From Cyanidioschyzon merolae (Eukaryota): DNA of 64,000 bases. The notes beneath the pieces are model-generated. The model had not been told where the DNA came from and searched no databases. It saw nothing but the letters and a program-made list of their open reading frames with translations. Positions 24,001 through 38,576 of this stretch are shown one piece after another. The position numbers were made by a program, and so were the translations under genes. Where the stretch lies: assembly GCA_000091205.1 (NCBI GenBank), contig AP006497.2. One strand, written 5' to 3'. The stretch's first letter is position 1, and the number at the start of each line of letters is the position of its first letter.

Positions 24001-24545
24001 CTCATACGCAAGCGATTCATCCGGGGCTTTGTATATTCTTTGCACAGCGCTTCCCAATGAGCAACGCGAACTTTTATGAACTCCCGAATGACCTGAAAGT
24101 CCGCTCCATGGCTCGTCACCTCGCTCATAGCTTCCAGATGCTCGTTCACTCCTTCATTTTACGTCTCAATTTTCTTCCTTGCATTCATTATTCCCGATTC
24201 TCGGTAATATCTAGCTTCTGAGAGCTTCAACAGAGGCATGTTTTCCTGGCGCAAGCCGCCGTCAATACCATCTTCCCCACGCTCGGATACCGCAATAGGT
24301 ATAATATTCATGTTCCCGGGGCCCGCGCCAACGACATAGTCCTTACCCTGCACCGCATGCGTCGCAGGATCCGCCTCCTTTTTTTTCATGCCTCGCCGAC
24401 GGCGAAGCATGAAGATGCAATGGGACGATCCACTTTCAAGCGCCGATCGTGTACACACACGGCTGCTCCATCGGCTTCGATCATCTCAGTAAATAACTTT
24501 TGTTTGCTCGTTTTCAGACGTTTGAAATCGAACATATTCACCCAA

Positions 24546-25358
24546 TTACGTCTCCCGGTTTTCGCCCGTAAACTCCTTGCTGCTTAGATCGAACTCCGGA
24601 TAGATCTCCTTCATTTTGCTGTAAAGTACGTAGGGGCCAACTGTCACAAAATGTGACTTGATGTTGCATAGCGGAACGACATTGAAGCGCTTACCCATTC
24701 GGGCAGCGTTCCGTTTCTCTGACTCTTCATTTTTCCCCTCACACGCTGCTCCATCTCCGCCTTGCGTTCGAGTTCTCGATTCAGGAATACGAAATAGTGC
24801 AGGATGAGCGGATAAAAACTTTTTTTCATCTCTGATACCTTTTCTGCTGGATTTGACAAGCCCCAAGACTACACAGTGCTCGTGAACAGCCATACGAATG
24901 ACAGAAGCTTCATTCTTGCCCCTGCGTGATGCCTTCTTGTCGACGAATTCGATCCCCTGTCCATTCTGGCGATCGTTCGTGATGCCACTGATGATGGCCC
25001 GTATCCCCTGGCGGGAGAGGCCCGGGCACAGTGTAAAAATAGCCCGTATGATGAAACGTTCGAGGTTCACGATCATATGGTTCTTCCGGTGCTTGAGGAA
25101 CTTGATTGCCCCGTAGGTGTAAATATCACCATCATCCCTGCATCGAGTACCGTCGAAGCGGAATTCGGCGTAATTCTCGTGGAGGGCGTGCACTCGCTCA
25201 TTTTTCGTCGACGTTTCCCCTGTGCCAACCATCAGGTGGCGAATAAACGTCTTGCTGAAAAATCCCCCCGGGACCTCGACCATTTTGATGCCCATCACGT
25301 CCCGAAACATCTTCTTCATCAAATACATAAGCCCTGACGGAGCCTTCATAATACTCAT
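24546..25358 (-). other. Unassigned 270 aa ORF inside an AT-rich island (about 24000-25800). It lies upstream of, and in the same orientation as, Fanzor-like copy B, and may be the N-terminal or other coding part of the same element.
   Basis: Its base composition differs sharply from the flanking DNA. It is a long ORF co-oriented with copy B. I recognise no motif with confidence. Confidence 0.25.
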
Positions 25359-25974
25359 GGAGTACGACTCGACACGGTTTCTGAGTGCATCTCACAACTT
25401 TCCCTTTTAGGGATCCTTGATATGCCGAAGAAGACGGGCTTTCACAACCATCTCGTCATAGTGCCGTCTCTCTTGCAGCCTCTGACGTCGGACTTCCCCC
25501 TTTTTGCTTTTCGTCCTCTCCTGTTCTTCTGTACTTGACACTGTTTCTTCTTGCAGCCGGCGACATGATGCCTCCATAATCCTCCATTTCCATTTCCATG
25601 ACTTGCACTTTTCATTTTTTTCAAAAAGAACACGCTTTGAAAGCCTCTGCTATAACTCACGAAAAATCACTGGAATACACTTACTTGAGGGTTGGAACAC
25701 AGTTGAGTTCAAAAACTCGACGTTGCTATGACTTCAACGTAAATCCATCCGGTAAGTTAGAGCAACACGCTGATGATCAGGATCGTGTTCCCCTTGAACG
25801 GCGGCGTACGCATGGTGTATCATACCTTCCAGATTTAGAGATGCGCCTATCGACAGCACTATGCGGAGCAAAGAACAAAGACTTACCACTAAATGGCGAC
25901 GATACATCGATGTCTTTCGCTCTCTACGATAAACGTGAAAAGGGGAAAATGTTTCTGACCTGTCGAAAGCGTAC

Positions 25975-26510
25975 CTTAAAGGCGGAAGGTCCCGCGAACC
26001 GCACGAATCTCCCAGGCTTGCGCCTCATGCGCCTCCCAGTGGCGGGTGCTAGAGTGAGATCAAAGCAAATCGTACGAAACGCAGTTTATTCTGGGACCAG
26101 GGGCGGGCGGCTTGCTTCTGGGCGTCGCCCTTGTCGTGGAGGACTCCCCGGAAATCGCTTCTCGTTGCCGCTGATAGGATGTCCGTCTGCGCAGTTTGCT
26201 AGTTCCCGACATGCTAGTGAATTCCGACTCCGTATCAGGTGGAGCATTCCTCGAGCCGGCACCTTTCGTAGTATGGCAAAAACGTCCTGTCTCCGTGATG
26301 CATCGGCATCAGCGGTTGAGGCGCTGTTGCGGATGCAGTAATGCAGGTAATCGGCACACGATAGAACGTACAAACCGACCAGCGTATCCGAAAGGAAGTA
26401 TAGGTCAAGGAACTTGAGGGTGAGGTGCAGCAGCATGATGGACGCTTTTCCAATTACCATTACCCATCGCGCAATAAGGGATCCATGGTCAATGCCAACG
26501 TTTTGTCATC
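25975..26510. repeat. Dispersed repeat, copy B, homologous to 11455-12150 but with a single 75 bp unit.
   Basis: It begins aggcggaaggtcccgcga.... Similarity to copy A continues through ...ggcaaaaacgtcct..tccg.gatg.atcg.catcagcgg... and ...ggaacttg.g...ggtgcagcagcatga...attaccatta.ccatc.... Confidence 0.6.
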
Positions 26511-29235: not shown

Positions 29236-31647
29236 CTACGATCTCTTCCGCGACTTGCGACCACGATTTCGTTTTTGCCGGAAGATTTTCGGACGCAACA
29301 TGGCCATGGGCTTCCGTTTCGCCTTCTCTGCATTTGAGAGACCGCCAACCTTCTTGTGATGTCGATGAGGATCTCCGGAGTAACGTGGTCGGTCAAGACG
29401 ACCACGCTGCACAGATGCGAGGCGCTCTTCCAGACTCCGACGCCGGCGCTTAAACGCGGATTCCAAGCGCTGGGGACTCGCCGGACAGAATGGCTCTTCA
29501 AAGCGCACAACAGCGCTCTGCATGAAGGCCGCATTGGCGAGCGCACGATCCTCTTTGGTGCTGCATGATCTCAGTGCTTCCCGATCCGTCATCGCAATAT
29601 TGCCACCATCTGCCTGGGGTATATCATCATCGTCATCATCGTCATCGTCTTCAGGCGAATGCGGCATACGAGCATGCGGCAGGGTTCCACAAGGATCCAT
29701 CAGCGCGGTGTTGCGCGCTTCTGCATCCGCTGGACTCCTGCCGTCCGCCGACTGAACACCTACTGCAGTTTCTAACGATGCTGGCGGCAGCGTATGCCCC
29801 ATCGGATACAAGCTGCAGCGATCAGTCACAGGCGAAGACGACGACAAGGACAACCCATTCGTCTGCTCGGAAGAAGCCTCATCCGAAAATGCGTCACTTG
29901 CCAACGAATCTGGTGACATCGAGTCGTACTCCTGATCGCTTGTCGAGTCGTACTCGAGGTCTCCAGGTACACTCACATCTGCACGATGCTCTGAGCGTGC
30001 AGCATCCTTCAATTCCGTCCAGGACAACTCTGTGGCAGCATCACTGTCGTCTTCCGTGGCAACCACAGATGCAGTGCGATGCCGGCTATCTGCACTAGAC
30101 GCTGCATTCGCCGCTGCCACGGGCCGGCCCCGTTCGCGTCGAGGCAGCAACGCTGGCAACACCCGCCGATAGAGCTGGAGAACGCCACGAGCAGCCATCA
30201 TGATGCCCCGATCACGTGATTTTCGGTACTGCACCAGATCCTGGAGCAGAATCGAGTCCATGGCGTCTGGTACACGAGCACACAACTCCCGGATCGTATT
30301 CAAACCGATCGCAACGACTTCATCTGTACGACGATCGCTCACAAAGTAATGCGCCAGATGTCGGAGCAGGGGCGTAACCAGCTCGGCAGGCACATCCGCA
30401 TGTACTGCATCCACCAGCATCGCTAAAACACGCGTCACATGCTGCTGAGATGGCATCAGGTAACGCTGGAGTGCCGTATACAACAGGGGTACGCACTGGC
30501 GGCACGCGCCACTGCAGCGACAGGCCAACTGCAAGATCAACATTCTAAACTCAAATTTTTCCTGACGTGCTCCCAGTCGATGCAACAGACGCTCGATGAA
30601 ACGCTGCGGGTCGTACAACAGGGTCAGAGCAGGTGCATCGGACCCGGGATTCCCTCGTCGGGTATTCATCGGTGGGAATGAGGAAGCCCCCGGTGACGCC
30701 CCGTCCTCCGCGGTGTTGCGGAGCGCTCGTCGCAGTTCACGCTGAAAGCGTTGTTTCCGTCGACTTGATTTCTTCTGCGTCCGCTTGAAGCGTGTATTCA
30801 ACATCCGGAGCATACCGTCATCGGCGCTTGCTACGGACTTGCACGCTCGACTCTGAACTGCCTGTTGTTTCTCCGAGGGTGCCTCGTCGTCCGCCGATGT
30901 CGATTCCGCAGCGCTGTCGCTGTCGTCAGCACTGGATCGACCGGCTGCATCCGTCTCCAAAAGAAAGCGACAAGCCTGTGCTGCTACGCTAGTGTTCGAA
31001 TGAAAGCACGTATCTGCGACAAGCTGAATGAGTCTTGCGTCGGACTGCCACAGCCCAAGGCCATACGCTCGATAAAAGAGACGCAAGAGCGATTTTGCCA
31101 TCGATGCATCTGCCTCCGGTAGCACCCGTTGACAGACCTGTAAAAGTCTAGTCTTGATTTTCTCATGCAATGGACGCTGGTTACGCTGCGACCGTCGCAG
31201 CTCCGCGAGAACTTGCCCAAGCACAAGTCGCCGAAGTGTCTTGTCTTGGAAGCGCAGTAAGGCCACGTAGAGGTCGACTGCCGCCGTAGCCGTCAGAAAT
31301 GTTTCACCTTTTCGGTTTCGAAACCGGGTGACTGCTTGCACCAGTTCATAGCGGAGCGCTGCATGAAGCGTCGCTGCCCGTTCCGTGAGGAACTGAACGA
31401 GAAACTCAGCAACCGCTCGACACGCGTTCGGGTACGCTCCCGCAACCGTGGCCAGGAAAGCGACCAACTTGGTGAAGCGATCATGGCGAGCGCCAGGCTC
31501 CAGGGCCACAAGTGCTGCAAGCGTTTCAAACTGTTGGCGTTGAGCTGTAAACACTTCCTGGTAGGCGGCCGGATCGGCTAGGCAGCGACTCGCCAACAGG
31601 CTGAGGTCGGTGGCGAGCACTCGCTCAGTTTGACGCTGTCGAGACAT
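29236..31647 (-). CDS. SDA1: SDA1 ribosome-biogenesis / pre-60S export factor.
   Basis: The N terminus LSLLASRCLADPAAYQEVFTAQRQQFETL resembles the SDA1 N terminus (LP.LQNLIKRDP.SY.EEF..Q...F). It is followed by a long helical middle region, an acidic stretch (D9), and a basic C-terminal SDA1 tail ...SNAEKAKRKPMAMLRPKIFRQKRNRGRKSRKRS. The track start at 31725 is GTG. The first ATG is at 31647. Confidence 0.8.
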   Translation of the reverse strand: MSRQRQTERVLATDLSLLASRCLADPAAYQEVFTAQRQQFETLAALVALEPGARHDRFTKLVAFLATVAGAYPNACRAVAEFLVQFLTERAATLHAALRYELVQAVTRFRNRKGETFLTATAAVDLYVALLRFQDKTLRRLVLGQVLAELRRSQRNQRPLHEKIKTRLLQVCQRVLPEADASMAKSLLRLFYRAYGLGLWQSDARLIQLVADTCFHSNTSVAAQACRFLLETDAAGRSSADDSDSAAESTSADDEAPSEKQQAVQSRACKSVASADDGMLRMLNTRFKRTQKKSSRRKQRFQRELRRALRNTAEDGASPGASSFPPMNTRRGNPGSDAPALTLLYDPQRFIERLLHRLGARQEKFEFRMLILQLACRCSGACRQCVPLLYTALQRYLMPSQQHVTRVLAMLVDAVHADVPAELVTPLLRHLAHYFVSDRRTDEVVAIGLNTIRELCARVPDAMDSILLQDLVQYRKSRDRGIMMAARGVLQLYRRVLPALLPRRERGRPVAAANAASSADSRHRTASVVATEDDSDAATELSWTELKDAARSEHRADVSVPGDLEYDSTSDQEYDSMSPDSLASDAFSDEASSEQTNGLSLSSSSPVTDRCSLYPMGHTLPPASLETAVGVQSADGRSPADAEARNTALMDPCGTLPHARMPHSPEDDDDDDDDDIPQADGGNIAMTDREALRSCSTKEDRALANAAFMQSAVVRFEEPFCPASPQRLESAFKRRRRSLEERLASVQRGRLDRPRYSGDPHRHHKKVGGLSNAEKAKRKPMAMLRPKIFRQKRNRGRKSRKRS

Positions 31648-32016
31648 GCAGTGCAACCTAGCTGAGCAAGGAGCTATACTCCCTCGACACGATCGGGTGT
31701 TCCAGTAGAAGCGTACCTTGAACACCAGGCACGACTCGGCGAGCGCTTCCGCCTAGCGCGCTGCTCAGAGAACGACACACGAGAGGCGTCGTCTGCGACT
31801 CGCTGATAGAGGCCACCCGCGGGACCTCCTTCAACTTTGTGGTTGAGTGCCTGCACAGTTATGATTGAATGGTGATAAACGTTATTTCAGTGCTAAAGTG
31901 TTAGTGTTCCGAGTGCACCCGCAACGAGCGCTGCGAACGTTTTACGAAAGCCAATACCTTGTATATCAACGAACGCTGCAGCTCCATCGACGAGGCGTGC
32001 AACGGGTATGCCAACA

Positions 32017-32053
32017 GTGGTGCTGGTGCTGGTGCTGGTGCTGGTGCTGGTGC
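32017..32053. repeat. Hexanucleotide microsatellite (tggtgc) x about 6 in the divergent SDA1 / ABCD intergenic region.
   Basis: Direct reading: tggtgctggtgctggtgctggtgctggtgctggtgc. Confidence 0.9.
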
Positions 32054-32149
32054 AACGGGACTGGAACGTCTAGGTTTCAGGGGACACGAATGCACGTTCA
32101 TTAAACGTCTGTCCTTCCTGAACCGGGATACACTGTGAAAGCAAAAGCC

Positions 32150-34281
32150 ATGTCGAGGACCACAAGGCGTTCCAATAGACGCAAGTCCGAAGCGACTGTG
32201 CGGATCGCGTCTCCGCAGTCGACCCTTGTCAGAAGCAGTGCCACACCGAGTACTGGAAGCGACACCCAGCCTGATCGACAACGTACGCCCTCCATAACCA
32301 GCGATCGTACGCAAGAGACGTGCAAGGAAGCAGCACGCCGCTCGCAGCAGTGGAGCGACCTGCTCAACGTCATCAGCCTCTGTCTGGCAAAGCGAACAGA
32401 CCGGGTGCTCTGCTTCCTGGCGCTCCCGTTGACAGTTGTCGTTTCGCTGTGGCTGTCGCATCGGCTCGTAGTGCAAACAGCGGTTCTTTCTGCGGTGCTT
32501 TGGTCTCGCGATGTACAACGCATGCAGGATGAGCTGCGGCATCTACTGGTGCTGTCGCTCTGCCTCAGCGTCTGGCGTATCCTTCGTGCTGCCTTGAACG
32601 AGTTTATCGCGATTCGCTGGCGTAGGGCGCTCTCAGAAAAGCTCCATAGCATCCTGGTTGCACCAGCGAGGATTACGGCGGAGGTGTCGCAGTCGTCGTC
32701 CGACGAGCACAGGGAAGCAACGCGTCCATTGACGACTGGGCTGCATCGGGGTCGCTTTCCGCTGATGAGGATTGCGTCGGAGCGAGCCTGCTGCCAATTG
32801 TACGAACAAGTAACCACATCGAGTCTTCGTATGCTCAGCGTGGACCTGATTTCCCTCGTATCCGGAGGTACAGGCGGCGCTGGCGGTCTCGTGGAGAATG
32901 CCGGCACCGTGTTCTGGCAGTTTGCACGGACGTATCAGCGTCTGCCGCTTCTACCGCTGCTGTTGGGTCTCGGATTCGTGCTCGGCTCCTATACGCTAAT
33001 CTGGTTACTAGCGTTTCGGGTAGAGCGCGTCAATGTTCAGCTGGATGCGGCGGAAACTGCCCTGCGAACAGAGTACATGACGCTGGTGGAGCAGGCGGAG
33101 ACACACGCCCTGCACAGCTGCGGCTGTGATGCGTTACTGGCCCTGGAAACGCATGTAGACGCGTGCTGCCGTGGGATGCGTCAACTTGGGCTGTCGCGTC
33201 TCCCTCTGGTTTTCATGCAACACATCACGGGGTACGGTAGTGCGTGGTTGGCGTACGCTGCCGCCGTTGTTGTCGTCTTGAAGCGCGCTTCCAGCGACAT
33301 CGACGAGCATGGGATCGCTTCGGGTGCTAAGGAGGAGCTCATGCGCTGGACCTCGCAGTTTATCGCGGAGCTTTTGCAGCTGCTGGGCTCGCTTGTCGGT
33401 CTTCTGCAGCTATGCACCGACATGCGCGCTCATGCTCTGCAGGCGAACCGGGTGCTTTCGCTCTGCCGCCTGGTGCACACGCGACGCGTCGCGTAGGAGG
33501 CAGCGCCCGGCCGACTCCCGAAGCTTCGCAATCCTACCTGCTTCGACTCGAGCACGTCCATCTGTCGATACCCGGAAGCGAACGGCTTCTCCTCAGAGAC
33601 CTGACTCTACATGTACATCGTGGTGAGCACACGCTCATCGAGGCACCGAGCGGTGCTGGCAAGAGCGCCTTGGTGCGAGCGCTCCGCGGTAACTGGTAGT
33701 TCCAAGTGACCGCTGATCAGCGCCCGTACTGTTTGCAGCTCCCTCGCAGTGCACTGTTCCTGAATGAGGCGTCAGGATTGCACCCCGATCGTGTCGCTTT
33801 TCGACGATCCGAATACCTGGGATACGGCTGTGCTGGAAACCTGGGCCAATGCCTGGCTGGGAGCCACACAGCACCAGCAGATCCGGAACCTATGTGGAAC
33901 GCGCTTGCACAACTGGGACTCGCAACCCAGCTCCGCTGCACCGGAGACCTGGAAAGCAACATCCATTGGCACCAGCAGTTATCACGAGTCGCACGGGTTC
34001 AGCTCAGCGTTGCTCGCGTGCTCTATCAACGACCCGCGCTCGTTGTCATGGATGATGCACTGCACGCTGTGTACAGCTGTAACAACAACAACAATGGCAT
34101 GTGTGATAATATCGAGGGCTCTGCGGACGACCTGGCTACGATGCTGCTTCGGGCCTGTTTCGCGCAGGGGATTACCGTGCTCTACCTCCGTCCTCCTGCA
34201 GACAATTGGATGTATTTATTTAAGCAGCATTCCATGATTGATGCTCGCGGAAGGTTACGGAAGCGTTGCCTGCCCGCATGA
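32150..34281 (+). CDS. ABCD-type (peroxisomal-like) ABC half-transporter, TMD then NBD. The reading frame is interrupted, so it needs introns or is a pseudogene.
   Basis: The TMD in frame 2 (to 33496) has ABCD-like blocks (ALNEFIAIRWRRALSEKLHS and EAA-like TALRTEYMTLVEQAETHALHSCG). The NBD in frame 1 starts with Walker A LIEAPSGAGKSALVRALRGNW. An in-frame TAG follows at 33697-33699. After it come a QRPY block, a degenerate signature LSRVARVQLSVARVL, and a Walker B VVMDDA where D replaces the catalytic E. Confidence 0.5.
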
Positions 34282-34893
34282 CTTGCGTGGACGCTTTCTC
34301 AGCATCTCGCGGCAGCTGCTGACAGGTGCCAGTATCGACACCAGTCGCATGCTCCGGACTCGAGACCGCCGTCCCTGAAATACACCAGAAAAAAATCGCT
34401 TCCCTTCCCGACAAGTGTAAAGCGTATACACACAAGGCGGTAGTTGATGCCTCGCATTCGACGATGGAACGGTTTACCCGGTGAGATGCCGCCTGATACA
34501 CCAGGAAGCGTCGTTTTCCTTCGGTGCGATGCAAGCAGCGCGCTGCTCTCGTTAAATAGAGCACGAAACCTCCAGAGTGCGCGCATCACCTAGGCGATAA
34601 CGTGGTCTTTTTGATCCAGGGATACGTGAAAACTGCCCTATTTGAGGTCCAGTTGCGACCTGCCCAGTTTCCAGTGCAGTGTGTAGGCTCGAACAACCAC
34701 TGTGGTGTTCCCGGCCGACTTTTCACTCAGGCCTTCCCGAATCTTCCATTCATATTCATCTATCATACCATTTTTGATCTGAAGGGAAGCACCCCCTGAT
34801 ATCCATTGCACAGCTCAAACCAATCTGCCGGATTCGGGGAAAGGTCATCGCTTCGTACCGGAGCGTTGCTATTGGAATACTGGCACCGCTTGG

Positions 34894-34924
34894 GGTGGTG
34901 GTGGTGGTGGTGGTGGTGGTGGTG
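34894..34924. repeat. (ggt) x about 10 microsatellite just 3' of the tRNase Z stop codon.
   Basis: Direct reading: ggtggtggtggtggtggtggtggtggtggt. Confidence 0.9.
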
Positions 34925-34925
34925 C

Positions 34926-37334
34926 TCAGCCCTCTGAACTCGCCAACTCAGCGTCTAATTCGGAATCAGCAATCTCCAGCGGCTCCTCGAACTCGGATGC
35001 AAACTCCGTCAGCAGCCTCTGCAGGAACAGGGACACAACGTCGCTGTTCGCGACTGCCGGCGGTGTCGTCGTCAGGGTCCTGCTTCCCGCCTGTTCGCCG
35101 TCCTTCGAAAACCAAGGCAGACGCATCAGGTCCCAGGCCAGGAGACAAGAATTCGCCTTCAACCGCTGCTGAGTCTCTGCACTCGATATCAGCGGCAGCT
35201 TTGGATAGCGCTGCGAAAAGTGGGTCAATACTGCTCGCTGTGGCTGCATGCTCTCAATGGTACCCAGAGCTTGGCCAATGGTAGAGTGCTTGCGCAACAA
35301 TGCTTCCGCTTCCTTGCCGTCCTCGAAGGTTGCTTCGTGAATCACTAGTGTCGCTCCTCGTGCAGCTGCAATGAGACCCGCATCATACGGCAGCGTATCC
35401 CCGGAATAGACGAGCTTCCACGAAGCAGCAGCTGCAGCGTTATCGCTACTCCGCGCCGTACTTGGTGCGCTTGTTGGCACAGGAAGCGCTTGCTGCTCCT
35501 TAGAGCCGTTCTGATCCCAACCGGCTGCAAGCGCGCTCTCCAAGACCAGACCGTACGCCTCAGGGCAGTGATCCACCGGCAGCGTCCTCAGATGGATACC
35601 CAGCGTCTGTGGGAAATACTCACTCAATGGAGACGTATCCGATTGCAGCAACGCAGCATTATCCAGAAAAATGTACGACATGGGCTCGAGCTCCGCCAAT
35701 GCCTCCAGCCAACGTCCCAGCAGTCGTGGTCCGAGCACCATCAGCGGCATCATCGCTGTTCCGAGTCGCTCAGATTGCGGAAGTTCCCTCGCTAGTCGCG
35801 TCCGTAACGCGACCAACGAACCAACGCCCAGATGATGATCGGCATGCATATGAGATATCCATATGCAACGCACGCGGTGCAACAGCATCGCCTTGGCAGT
35901 ATCAAGCCCGACAGCTCGAACCAGTTGACCAAAAGTGCCTTCACCGGCGTCAAGGAAGAGTGCATGATCCACGAGATCCACGAGAATCGCGCTCACATTA
36001 CGATATCGACTGGGAAGTGCGCTGCCGGTTCCCAGAAACAACACGGAATACGTCTTGGAATCGTTGTTGCTTGACGTTCGCTTGAGGGTATCCGGCTCTC
36101 GGGGAACGTTCAACCTCGACCATCCATGGTTTGCAGCAGCGTGCGATTCGGGTAACGCCCAACCAAGTGTTGTTCGCGGGGCAGCGTTGAAACGCAGGAG
36201 CGGCTGCGCAAGCTGCCATGTCGCAGGCAGTGCCGACGTAGTACGGGCTCGTGGATCCGCTGGGGCCGTCCACGGCTCGAGAAACCAGTTCCAGTCTACG
36301 AATTTGAGTCGTTCGAGCATTGCCGCTTGGCCCCGGAAGGTGATACGCTGGTTACTGAACGATTCACAGGCCACTGAGTGGTACGCGTCCGCACCGAACA
36401 CGTCCAGAGCCCACTCCTGATATTGAGGATCGCTGAACACTTCCGCACAGAGGAAATGAAAGACGCATACTGGTCGTTTTTGTCTGTGCGTTGGCGTCGA
36501 TGCAGCAAGCCGCTGAAACCATTGCTTGAGACGTTGACGACCGCTGGGTGCCTGCATCTGTGATACCAGGTCCGGGGAGGAGGCACAGAGCATCACGAGG
36601 AGTGGTCCCGGACTCGAAGGTTCCATAACGTCAGTTGGATGCACTGTTCGGCGGGTTCCATCAGGTTGCTCCACTTCAATGGACTCGCCTCTCTGAAGTC
36701 GACCGTAGAGCGGCCCCCGAGGAATCCCCAAGGCTGCTGCACGCTCGGTCACAAAACGACCCTTCTGGTCAGCGACGCGTACTGCATATGTTACGAAAAT
36801 TCGCTCAGCGACTTCGTTCTTCGACGACGAGGATAGGGCTTCCGGAACCTCCTCATCTCGTCGTTCCCCGCAGTGTCGTTTCACTTGATCCTTTTGGGTG
36901 GCCAGTGAGCGCTGCAGCTGTTCATCGACAAGCCAAGGCAACGCATACACGGCAAACAAGGGATTCTGAACGAGCGGATCTGAAGGCTCGTCCTCGCCCA
37001 GTTCGTGAACATGCAGCGGATACTGGGGTCTACTGGCAAAGCGCTTCGCCGTGGAGAGGGTTTTCTCTAGTCCCCGCGGTGCGAACATCGTCAACCCTGC
37101 ATGCCCGGCATCCGCCAGGGAAAGCATCAGACCCAGGAATCCGGCGCAGGTGTCGGCATCCAGTCTACTGAGAAAAACATGGGACAGTTTTCCCAATCGC
37201 ACTTTATACTCAATGCAGAGTCGCTGGGTGCCTTCGCTGCAGTTAAAGAGCAGCCGACGCTCTTCCGAGTGGAATACCACCGACGCTGCCGCATCAGCAG
37301 CACCGTTCCCGAGCCACTCTGCAAACGCTCGCAT
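34926..37334 (-). CDS. ELAC2: tRNase Z, long form (ELAC2-like tRNA 3' endonuclease).
   Basis: The N-terminal pseudo-MBL half is ..LLFNCSEGTQRLC... The C-terminal metallo-beta-lactamase half carries the HxHxDH motif ISHMHADHHLG and the tRNase Z hallmark VLTHFSQRYPKLP. The track start at 37343 is TTG. The first ATG is at 37334. Confidence 0.85.
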   Translation of the reverse strand: MRAFAEWLGNGAADAAASVVFHSEERRLLFNCSEGTQRLCIEYKVRLGKLSHVFLSRLDADTCAGFLGLMLSLADAGHAGLTMFAPRGLEKTLSTAKRFASRPQYPLHVHELGEDEPSDPLVQNPLFAVYALPWLVDEQLQRSLATQKDQVKRHCGERRDEEVPEALSSSSKNEVAERIFVTYAVRVADQKGRFVTERAAALGIPRGPLYGRLQRGESIEVEQPDGTRRTVHPTDVMEPSSPGPLLVMLCASSPDLVSQMQAPSGRQRLKQWFQRLAASTPTHRQKRPVCVFHFLCAEVFSDPQYQEWALDVFGADAYHSVACESFSNQRITFRGQAAMLERLKFVDWNWFLEPWTAPADPRARTTSALPATWQLAQPLLRFNAAPRTTLGWALPESHAAANHGWSRLNVPREPDTLKRTSSNNDSKTYSVLFLGTGSALPSRYRNVSAILVDLVDHALFLDAGEGTFGQLVRAVGLDTAKAMLLHRVRCIWISHMHADHHLGVGSLVALRTRLARELPQSERLGTAMMPLMVLGPRLLGRWLEALAELEPMSYIFLDNAALLQSDTSPLSEYFPQTLGIHLRTLPVDHCPEAYGLVLESALAAGWDQNGSKEQQALPVPTSAPSTARSSDNAAAAASWKLVYSGDTLPYDAGLIAAARGATLVIHEATFEDGKEAEALLRKHSTIGQALGTIESMQPQRAVLTHFSQRYPKLPLISSAETQQRLKANSCLLAWDLMRLPWFSKDGEQAGSRTLTTTPPAVANSDVVSLFLQRLLTEFASEFEEPLEIADSELDAELASSEG

Positions 37335-37876: not shown

Positions 37877-38576
37877 CGTGATAAGAGGAAGGAGGTTACT
37901 TTCCCGACGGGGTATCCAAGTGAGGCCTGTTTGGGTACTGTGCCGGTTCATTGGACTCGATCAAGCATCGTGATAAGAGGAAGGAGGTTACTTTCCCGAC
38001 GGGGTATCCAAGTGAGGCTTGTTTGGGTACTGTACGTGTTCATTGGACTCGATCAAGCATCGTGATACGAGTGAGGAGGTTACTTTCCCGACGGGGTATC
38101 CAAGTGAGGCTTGTTTGGGTACTGTGCCGGTTCATTGGACTCGATCAAGCATCGTGATACGAGTGAGGAGGTTACTTTCCCGACGGGGTATCCAAGTGAG
38201 GCTTGTTTGGGTACTGTACGTGTTCATTGGACTCGATCAAGCATCGTGATAAGAGGAAGGAGGTTACTTTCCCGACGGGGTATCCAAGTGAGGCTTGTTT
38301 GGGTACTGTGCCGGTTCATTGGACTCGATCAAGCATCGTGATACGAGTGAGGAGGTTACTTTCCCGGCGGGGTATCCAAGTGAGGCTTGTTTGGGTACTG
38401 TACGTGTTCATTGGACTCGATCAAGCATCGTGATACGAGTGAGGAGGTTACTTTCCCGACGGGGTATCCAAGTGAGGCTTGTTTGGGTACTGTGCCGGTT
38501 CATTGGACTCGATCAAGCATCGTGATACGAGTGAGGAGGTTACTTTCCCGACGGGGTATCCAAGTGAGGCTTGTTC
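37877..38576. repeat. Minisatellite of 92 bp units x about 7.6, in two alternating unit variants, between tRNase Z and UTP10.
   Basis: Unit starts are at 37877, 37969, 38061, 38153, 38245, 38337, 38429 and 38521 (the last partial). The unit is cgtgata(a/c)gag(g/t)(a/g)aggaggttactttcccgacggggtatccaagtgaggcttgtttgggtactgt(gccg/acgt)gttcattggactcgatcaagcat. Confidence 0.9.

Follow-up and report, generated by a model that had tools for sequence, protein, structure and literature searches.

ABCD proteins are half-transporters of the ATP-binding cassette (ABC) class in which a transmembrane domain (TMD) is followed by a nucleotide-binding domain (NBD) in one polypeptide; human ABCD1-3 are peroxisomal, human ABCD4 is the lysosomal cobalamin transporter, and the plant representative is ABCD1/CTS. 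Here, we describe an ABCD-like gene of the red alga Cyanidioschyzon merolae 10D that occupies positions 32150-34281 of a 64,000-nucleotide stretch of contig AP006497.2 (GenBank assembly GCA_000091205.1); this whole stretch is referred to below as the window. The locus is probably a lineage-specific (unitary) pseudogene of a cyanidiophyte ABCD-like half-transporter whose TMD and NBD were encoded by one open reading frame (ORF). It shares with the ABCD half-transporters the arrangement of a TMD and then an NBD in one polypeptide, and the best PDB matches of a profile that includes its TMD, as well as those of the NBD of its orthologue, are ABCD proteins. Unlike them, the C. merolae copy is broken by two stop codons and a frame shift, and the cyanidiophyte subfamily to which it belongs is without the Gln of the Q-loop and the His of the H-loop, with further motif losses and a 17-residue insertion in C. 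merolae. The initial annotation of the window had offered a pseudogene as one of three readings, next to a gene with very small introns and a gene for a non-catalytic NBD; it is the pseudogene that is backed by intact orthologues, by lesions found in independent assemblies and by an apparently neutral NBD.

Three further kinds of described systems can be compared with this locus. Like unitary pseudogenes with segregating disabling alleles, it is a single-copy gene with a conserved gene order around it and with intact counterparts in sister lineages; its lesions are a nonsense mutation and slippage indels, several lesion combinations coexist, and the downstream part appears to be neutral. Unlike in such pseudogenes, the upstream ORF of 448 codons is still open in all haplotypes. 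The SbmA/BacA family (PF05992) provides a precedent for an ABCD-type TMD fold that functions without an ATPase domain, and bacterial relatives of the sequence used as query carry PF06472 along with PF05992. However, SbmA/BacA proteins are bacterial and long established, whereas the loss of the NBD in C. merolae would be recent and due to a stop codon, and a working truncated product is a putative one. Finally, CFTR NBD1, TAP1 and Pdr5 possess degenerate (non-hydrolytic) nucleotide-binding sites, which are complemented, within a heterodimer or a full-size transporter, by a consensus site. The intact cyanidiophyte orthologues resemble such a degenerate site, with the Q-loop Gln and the H-loop His missing and the rest kept; in contrast to CFTR NBD1, TAP1 and Pdr5, the C. 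merolae NBD is not translated together with the TMD.

Structure of the locus in strain 10D

Twelve haplotypes of the locus were considered, the window (10D) and eleven independent environmental contigs, L005-L015, which are 98.3-99.5% identical to positions 32055-34400 and were collected by an exact-pattern scan of metagenome contigs and by look-ups of environmental gene calls. Direct reading and translation show that in 10D the TMD frame (frame 2) runs from GTG 32135 or ATG 32150 to an in-frame TAG at 33494-6. The elements of the locus are as follows.

32150..33493, + strand: ORF that encodes the TMD, with 448 codons if counted from ATG 32150 and 453 if counted from GTG 32135
33494..33496, + strand: TAG-1, the stop of the TMD frame in the TMD-NBD linker, seen in the window and in L005-L015 (12/12)
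33500..33509, + strand: the 10-bp unit GGCAGCGCCC, a single copy in 10D; its copy number sets the NBD frame
33511..34278, + strand: frame-1 remnant of the NBD, which shares 46% identity with the NBD of the orthologue
33697..33699, + strand: TAG-2, an in-frame stop directly after LRGNW; a C/T polymorphism, with Ser or Pro aligned in the orthologues
34279..34281, + strand: TGA, the original stop of the ancestral full-length gene

The three lesions of 10D are TAG-1, a -1 frame offset that corresponds to the one-copy allele of the 10-bp unit, and TAG-2. The initial annotation had described a TMD in frame 2 and an NBD in frame 1, both ABCD-like, and this description was borne out by translation, by comparison with the orthologue and by Pfam and PDB matches. 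It had placed the frame change near 33480-33540, which is where the copy-number state of the 10-bp unit at 33500-33509 determines the frame, and direct reading confirmed the TAG that it had reported right after Walker A and LRGNW. Its lesion set was right as to the frame shift and TAG-2 and left TAG-1 uncounted, so that there are three lesions rather than two. An uninterrupted TMD-NBD reading frame is absent from 10D, and haplotypes free of TAG-1 number 0 of 12. Judged by its reading frames, the NBD of 10D is certainly not part of any product.

Intact relatives in other algae

The initial annotation had called for a comparison with orthologues in respect of intactness and motifs, and the orthologue is a single intact ORF in each of three algal relatives, namely Cyanidium caldarium, Cyanidiococcus yangmingshanensis and the source of protein P0002. 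The conceptual protein obtained by joining the two C. merolae parts matches P0002 (634 amino acids, single ORF) with E=2.4e-141 at 45% identity and 91% coverage, a similarity well beyond chance, the TMD ORF being 49% identical to P0002 across the TMD. On contigs of GCA_041825655.1 and of JGI samples, the gene for P0002 lies in the order SDA1(-)/ABC(+)/RNase Z(-)/BP28CT(+), and because this order is the same in the window, P0002 is taken as the syntenic orthologue. Exhaustive searching by HMMER, with P0002 as the query, and cluster look-ups yielded the relatives from Cyanidiococcus yangmingshanensis (KAK4530447.1, P0183; 594 amino acids, intact) and Cyanidium caldarium (KAK4534066.1, P0035; 712 amino acids, intact, 29% identical over the full length); the other matches, past the cyanidiophyte relatives, were generic ABCD proteins. 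A further cluster, P0001, represents an environmental copy of the C. merolae TMD ORF itself and is 99% identical to it. The ancestral gene is thereby shown to have been a single uninterrupted ORF, a state that the three related algae retain.

Taken separately, the two C. merolae pieces are weak in Pfam, with 16.4 bits for ABC_membrane_2 (PF06472; cut-off 24.4) and 20.9 bits for ABC_tran (PF00005). The joined conceptual translation reaches 28.9 bits for ABC_tran against a cut-off of 25, P0002 reaches 44.5 bits, and the Cyanidium protein attains 88.5 bits for PF06472 and passes PF00005 as well. When the PDB was searched with a profile of four cyanidiophyte TMDs (the window and the three orthologues), ABCD4 (2.8e-17) and plant ABCD1 were the only matches; for P0002, the top PDB entries are plant ABCD1/CTS (5e-28), followed by human ABCD1, ABCD4 and ABCD3. 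By homology of the TMD and by the presence of an NBD C-terminal to it, the label ABCD-like of the initial annotation is correct. The cyanidiophyte proteins appear to make up a divergent ABCD-like subfamily, members of which were found in cyanidiophytes only and which cannot be assigned to any single ABCD subgroup.

Two features of the gene models are worth recording. The C. merolae TMD ORF begins with an N-terminal extension of ~62 residues, rich in Ser, Thr and Arg (32150-32335), which may be an organelle-targeting region; it is missing in the 634-residue P0002 model, and extensions are present in P0004 (725 amino acids), a longer model of the same gene, and in the Cyanidium protein. In one assembly of C. 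yangmingshanensis the orthologue is split into KAF6004159.1 (P0184, 225 amino acids, with a changed C-terminus) and KAF6004158.1 (P0034, 345 amino acids), and in another it is the one 594-residue ORF (KAK4530447.1); the split is due either to misassembly or to a disruption that arose independently in a single strain.

Lesions fixed and segregating

In every C. merolae-type haplotype sampled (12/12), TAG-1 severs the ORF within the linker between TMD and NBD; it is the only fixed lesion, because of which it is evidently the oldest one visible. The 10-bp unit GGCAGCGCCC is present in one copy in seven haplotypes, 10D included, in two copies in three and in three copies in two. The NBD joins the frame of the TMD only when there are two copies, one or three copies leaving it out of frame, and since the two-copy state alone is in frame, the frame shift of 10D is evidently a 10-bp slippage deletion. 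At the position of TAG-2, six haplotypes have TAG and six have CAG (Gln). One-copy as well as two-copy haplotypes were found with TAG and with CAG, which makes four pairings, and five lesion combinations segregate across the haplotypes in total. Thus, past TAG-1 the NBD is neither kept in frame nor kept open. In two haplotypes, L007 and L014, which combine two copies with CAG, TAG-1 is the sole lesion, and 453 codons, TAG and 264 codons follow each other in one frame, which apparently shows the layout of the ancestral gene. Metagenome gene calls of 341 and 129 amino acids were considered as signs of extra lesions and rejected, as they merely reflect alternative start choices of the gene callers.

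The gene thus seems to have been caught in the middle of its decay, one nonsense codon being fixed while the 10-bp unit, which is prone to slippage, and another nonsense allele still segregate. The first step would have been TAG-1, or an earlier loss of the ATPase function, either of which would have freed the NBD from selection. For a specialist, this would be ordinary, well-documented gene decay that holds nothing unexpected. The practical consequence concerns annotation: in this model alga, whose genome is very small and poor in introns, neither introns nor a functional ABC transporter should be assigned to the locus.

State of the ATPase motifs

The motifs were matched by means of the HMMER alignment to the plant ABCD1 of the PDB, human ABCD1 serving for illustration only. 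The motif positions and the segments that matter for their reading are the following.

33643..33666, + strand: Walker A, APSGAGKS, within EAPSGAGKS (33640-33666); the first Gly is lost, and four haplotypes have TLSGAGKS
33718..33729, + strand: QRPY, which resembles the ABCD Q-loop by chance and is not homologous to it; the orthologues have the unconserved AKGS or TKRS aligned here
33763..33777, + strand: NEASG, the true equivalent of the Q-loop, with Gln missing; PTEPH or GAEPD in the orthologues, PQRPY in ABCD1
33979..34005, + strand: LSRVARVQL, eroded ABC signature; LSRAEQQRL or LSHGEQQLL in the orthologues
34039..34056, + strand: Walker B, LVVMDD, with the catalytic Glu changed to Asp; D-E is kept in 3/3 orthologues (MDES or LDEA)
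34063..34113, + strand: 17-residue insertion HAVYSCNNNNNGMCDNI with an (AAC)n run, just past Walker B and the D-loop, in none of the orthologues
34183..34197, + strand: YLRPP, the equivalent of the H-loop, without His; YLRPP, YMRPP and YLSEP in the orthologues, also without His

Two layers of change can be told apart in this set. The loss of the Q-loop Gln and of the H-loop His is a trait of the whole cyanidiophyte subfamily, being found in 3/3 orthologues. The loss of the first Gly of Walker A, which reads G(P/R)SG(S/A)GK in the three intact orthologues, of E-Q-Q in the signature (VARV) and of the Walker B Glu, together with the gain of the 17-residue insertion, is specific to C. merolae; these motif losses would belong to the decay of the NBD. 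The full catalytic motif set is accordingly incomplete in the window at all of these places, and the intact orthologues fall short of it just at the Q-loop and the H-loop. Overall, 20 of the 74 NBD columns that are invariant in the orthologues are lost in C. merolae, motif residues among them.

Several statements of the initial annotation concern these motifs. It had taken the QRPY that follows TAG-2 for a conserved block, which proved to be a misalignment, the Q-loop position lying 15 codons downstream at NEASG. It was correct in calling the signature degenerate and in noting an Asp for the catalytic Glu in Walker B, and the latter change turned out to be specific to C. merolae. An H-loop His is indeed absent, as it had stated, although this is not peculiar to the C. 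merolae copy. Its suggestion of a non-catalytic, degenerate NBD holds in so far as the Q-loop and H-loop losses are present in intact orthologues too; it does not hold for 10D, where the NBD cannot join a product and the other motif changes are particular to C. merolae. In the intact cyanidiophyte orthologues, Walker A, the signature and the D-E of Walker B are preserved and the Q-loop Gln and the H-loop His are missing, and the site of the subfamily looks like an intrinsically non-canonical ATPase site. A small ABCD-like subfamily of this kind may interest students of non-canonical ABC ATPases.

Polymorphism of the nucleotide-binding domain

Across the twelve haplotypes, all 18 polymorphisms of the NBD are nonsynonymous and none is synonymous. 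Columns that are invariant in the three orthologues are hit by seven of them, compared with 5.2 expected by chance; among these seven are L to P, W to C and Y to H as well as changes at two sites within Walker A. Nonsynonymous diversity (pN), compared between regions with one set of six haplotypes for all of them, is 0.024 in the NBD versus 0.003 in the neighbouring genes, SDA1 and ribonuclease Z (RNase Z), the synonymous diversity (pS) of which is 0.014-0.021. Because the pN of the NBD matches the synonymous diversity of the neighbours and because invariant columns are changed at the chance rate, the NBD appears to be clearly relaxed and to evolve without constraint. Divergence was compared on amino-acid changes with Cyanidium as an outgroup, synonymous sites between species being saturated at 45-50% amino-acid identity; 27 lineage-specific changes in the NBD belong to C. 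merolae and 16 to P0002. The total lack of synonymous changes in the NBD is at odds with simple neutrality, under which 4-5 would be predicted (P about 0.006-0.007), and only 1 of the 18 polymorphic NBD changes is at a third codon position. Selection on another frame or strand of the NBD was considered separately and rejected, the best frame giving at most 7 synonymous changes of 17.

Fate of the transmembrane domain

Most likely the TMD ORF upstream of TAG-1 is functionless too, and its open frame would be a leftover of recent inactivation. The pN of the TMD is 0.010, which is 3.5x that of the neighbours (P=0.012). Its polymorphisms, 9 synonymous and 14 nonsynonymous across the twelve haplotypes, occur at the three codon positions in about equal numbers (9, 6 and 8), so the excess at third positions is not seen, and at about 1.7% diversity a frame of 448 codons is expected to be open by chance.

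The alternative is that TAG-1 produced a TMD-only membrane protein of 448 amino acids that is still made and useful and that the NBD alone is a fossil. We consider this unlikely, and the results just given speak against it; nevertheless, a number of observations favor it and weigh against a locus that is dead throughout. TAG-1 is fixed and every NBD lesion is polymorphic, and the TMD ORF is open in 12/12 haplotypes. The ratios of synonymous to nonsynonymous changes in the TMD and the NBD, 9:14 and 0:18, differ (Fisher P=0.002). The pN/pS of the TMD is about 0.45-0.5; this is not significantly below 1 (P=0.07-0.12), which speaks against a useful product, but the synonymous-to-nonsynonymous split of the TMD does not differ significantly from that of the neighbours either (P=0.2). 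The TMD has not accelerated: with the same outgroup, 22 lineage-specific amino-acid changes are assigned to C. merolae and 24 to the intact P0002. In the aligned core of the TMD, 1 of 12 nonsynonymous polymorphisms affects an orthologue-invariant column where 2.1 would be expected, and relatives of the TMD fold that are devoid of an NBD exist in the SbmA/BacA family. Ribosome profiling of C. merolae reported no gene that is transcribed yet untranslated (PMC11808204), and nonsense-mediated decay may be absent from this alga (bioRxiv 10.64898/2026.05.17.725761); both reports are consistent with a TMD-only protein. On the other side, the source-named members of two clusters formed at 90% identity, P0001 with TMD ORFs and P0037 with ORFs of the NBD region, include no NCBI C. 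merolae entry. For the pseudogene, the 22 versus 24 changes imply a timing, namely that inactivation would be recent on the scale of the species divergence.

The same observations can be put as an evolutionary event, in which the fixed TAG-1 marks the recent conversion of a half-transporter into an NBD-less membrane protein, with the orphaned NBD decaying behind it. This we regard as slightly more doubtful still. Were it true, a 448-residue ABCD-type TMD would work without an ATPase of its own, as a secondary transporter similar to SbmA/BacA or as a partner or modulator (inhibitor) of another ABCD protein, and the locus would offer a eukaryotic snapshot of the origin of NBD-less relatives of ABC exporters.

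Recoding, splicing and sequencing error

Much less probable than a TMD-only protein is the production of a full-length protein with a regulatory, non-catalytic NBD through recoding, that is, through read-through of TAG-1 (and of TAG-2 in some strains) or through a ribosomal shift. It is true that a single read-through event would suffice for the full length in L007 and L014, that the stop codon at both lesions is TAG, and that the NBD is degenerate throughout the subfamily, without the Q-loop Gln or H-loop His. However, no slippery heptamer of the X XXY YYZ type was found before TAG-1 when positions 33470-33496 were read directly, and TAG GAG G is not known as a read-through context. The frame change that would be needed is -1, 0 or +1 depending on the haplotype, as the 10-bp unit varies, and a programmed shift is therefore untenable. 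In addition, TAG-2 is polymorphic with CAG, and NBD variants strike invariant residues at the chance rate.

The very small, phase-specific introns that the initial annotation had proposed are almost certainly not the explanation. GT..AG pairs with a suitable phase are present, and excision of 54 nt (gt..ag, 33696-33749) or of the 11-nt GTAGGAGGCAG (33493-33503) could remove stops and restore the frame. In the ~39 introns of C. merolae, the 5' site GUAAGU is conserved, the branch site ACUAACC hardly varies and the 3' end is AG (bioRxiv 10.64898/2026.05.17.725761; also PMC4829280), and none of GTAAGT, GTAAG, ACTAACC and CTAAC is present on the + strand of 32100-34400. The orthologues are colinear and free of gaps across both candidates, and CAG replaces TAG-2 in half of the haplotypes. 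Equally improbable is a sequencing or assembly error in the 10D reference, which the initial annotation had allowed for at the TAG and which is excluded because the lesions recur in independent assemblies: the one-copy allele with TAG-2 in L005, L006, L012 and L013, TAG-2 in 6 of 12 and TAG-1 in all eleven environmental assemblies.

Surroundings of the locus

The window is nuclear DNA of C. merolae 10D; it has a G+C content of ~56% and contains long intron-free ORFs on both strands as well as microsatellites. The gene is flanked by an ORF at 29239-31647(-), identical to SDA1 of C. merolae 10D (BAM81546.1 / XP_005537582.1), and by an ORF at 34929-37334(-), identical to its RNase Z (BAM81548.1). 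The reference numbering of these neighbours implies that one protein, BAM81547.1 (XP_005537583.1), is annotated between them, within 31648-34925 of the window; a literature search for these two accessions found no mention of them. Other ORFs of 31650-34925, submitted as two chimeric database queries, gave no matches; in the first query, an AP repeat and the GGGGS linkers had probably swamped the search. The window was also scanned over its full length with Rfam and for transfer RNA (tRNA) genes, and neither scan gave a match.

At 24001-26000 the G+C content drops to 0.487 (versus ~0.56) with a strongly negative GC skew (-0.15). A (TGGTGC)6 microsatellite at 32018-32053, ~100 bp upstream of the ABC start codon, differs in length between haplotypes, and a (GGT)10 microsatellite at 34894-34924 lies directly 3' of the RNase Z stop. 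Finally, the divergent intergenic region between RNase Z (-) and a 2177-codon BP28CT/UTP10-like ORF (+) contains a 92-bp tandem repeat at 37877-38575, with 7.6 copies and 95% matches; BLAST offsets against L009 suggest that its copy number, too, differs between haplotypes.

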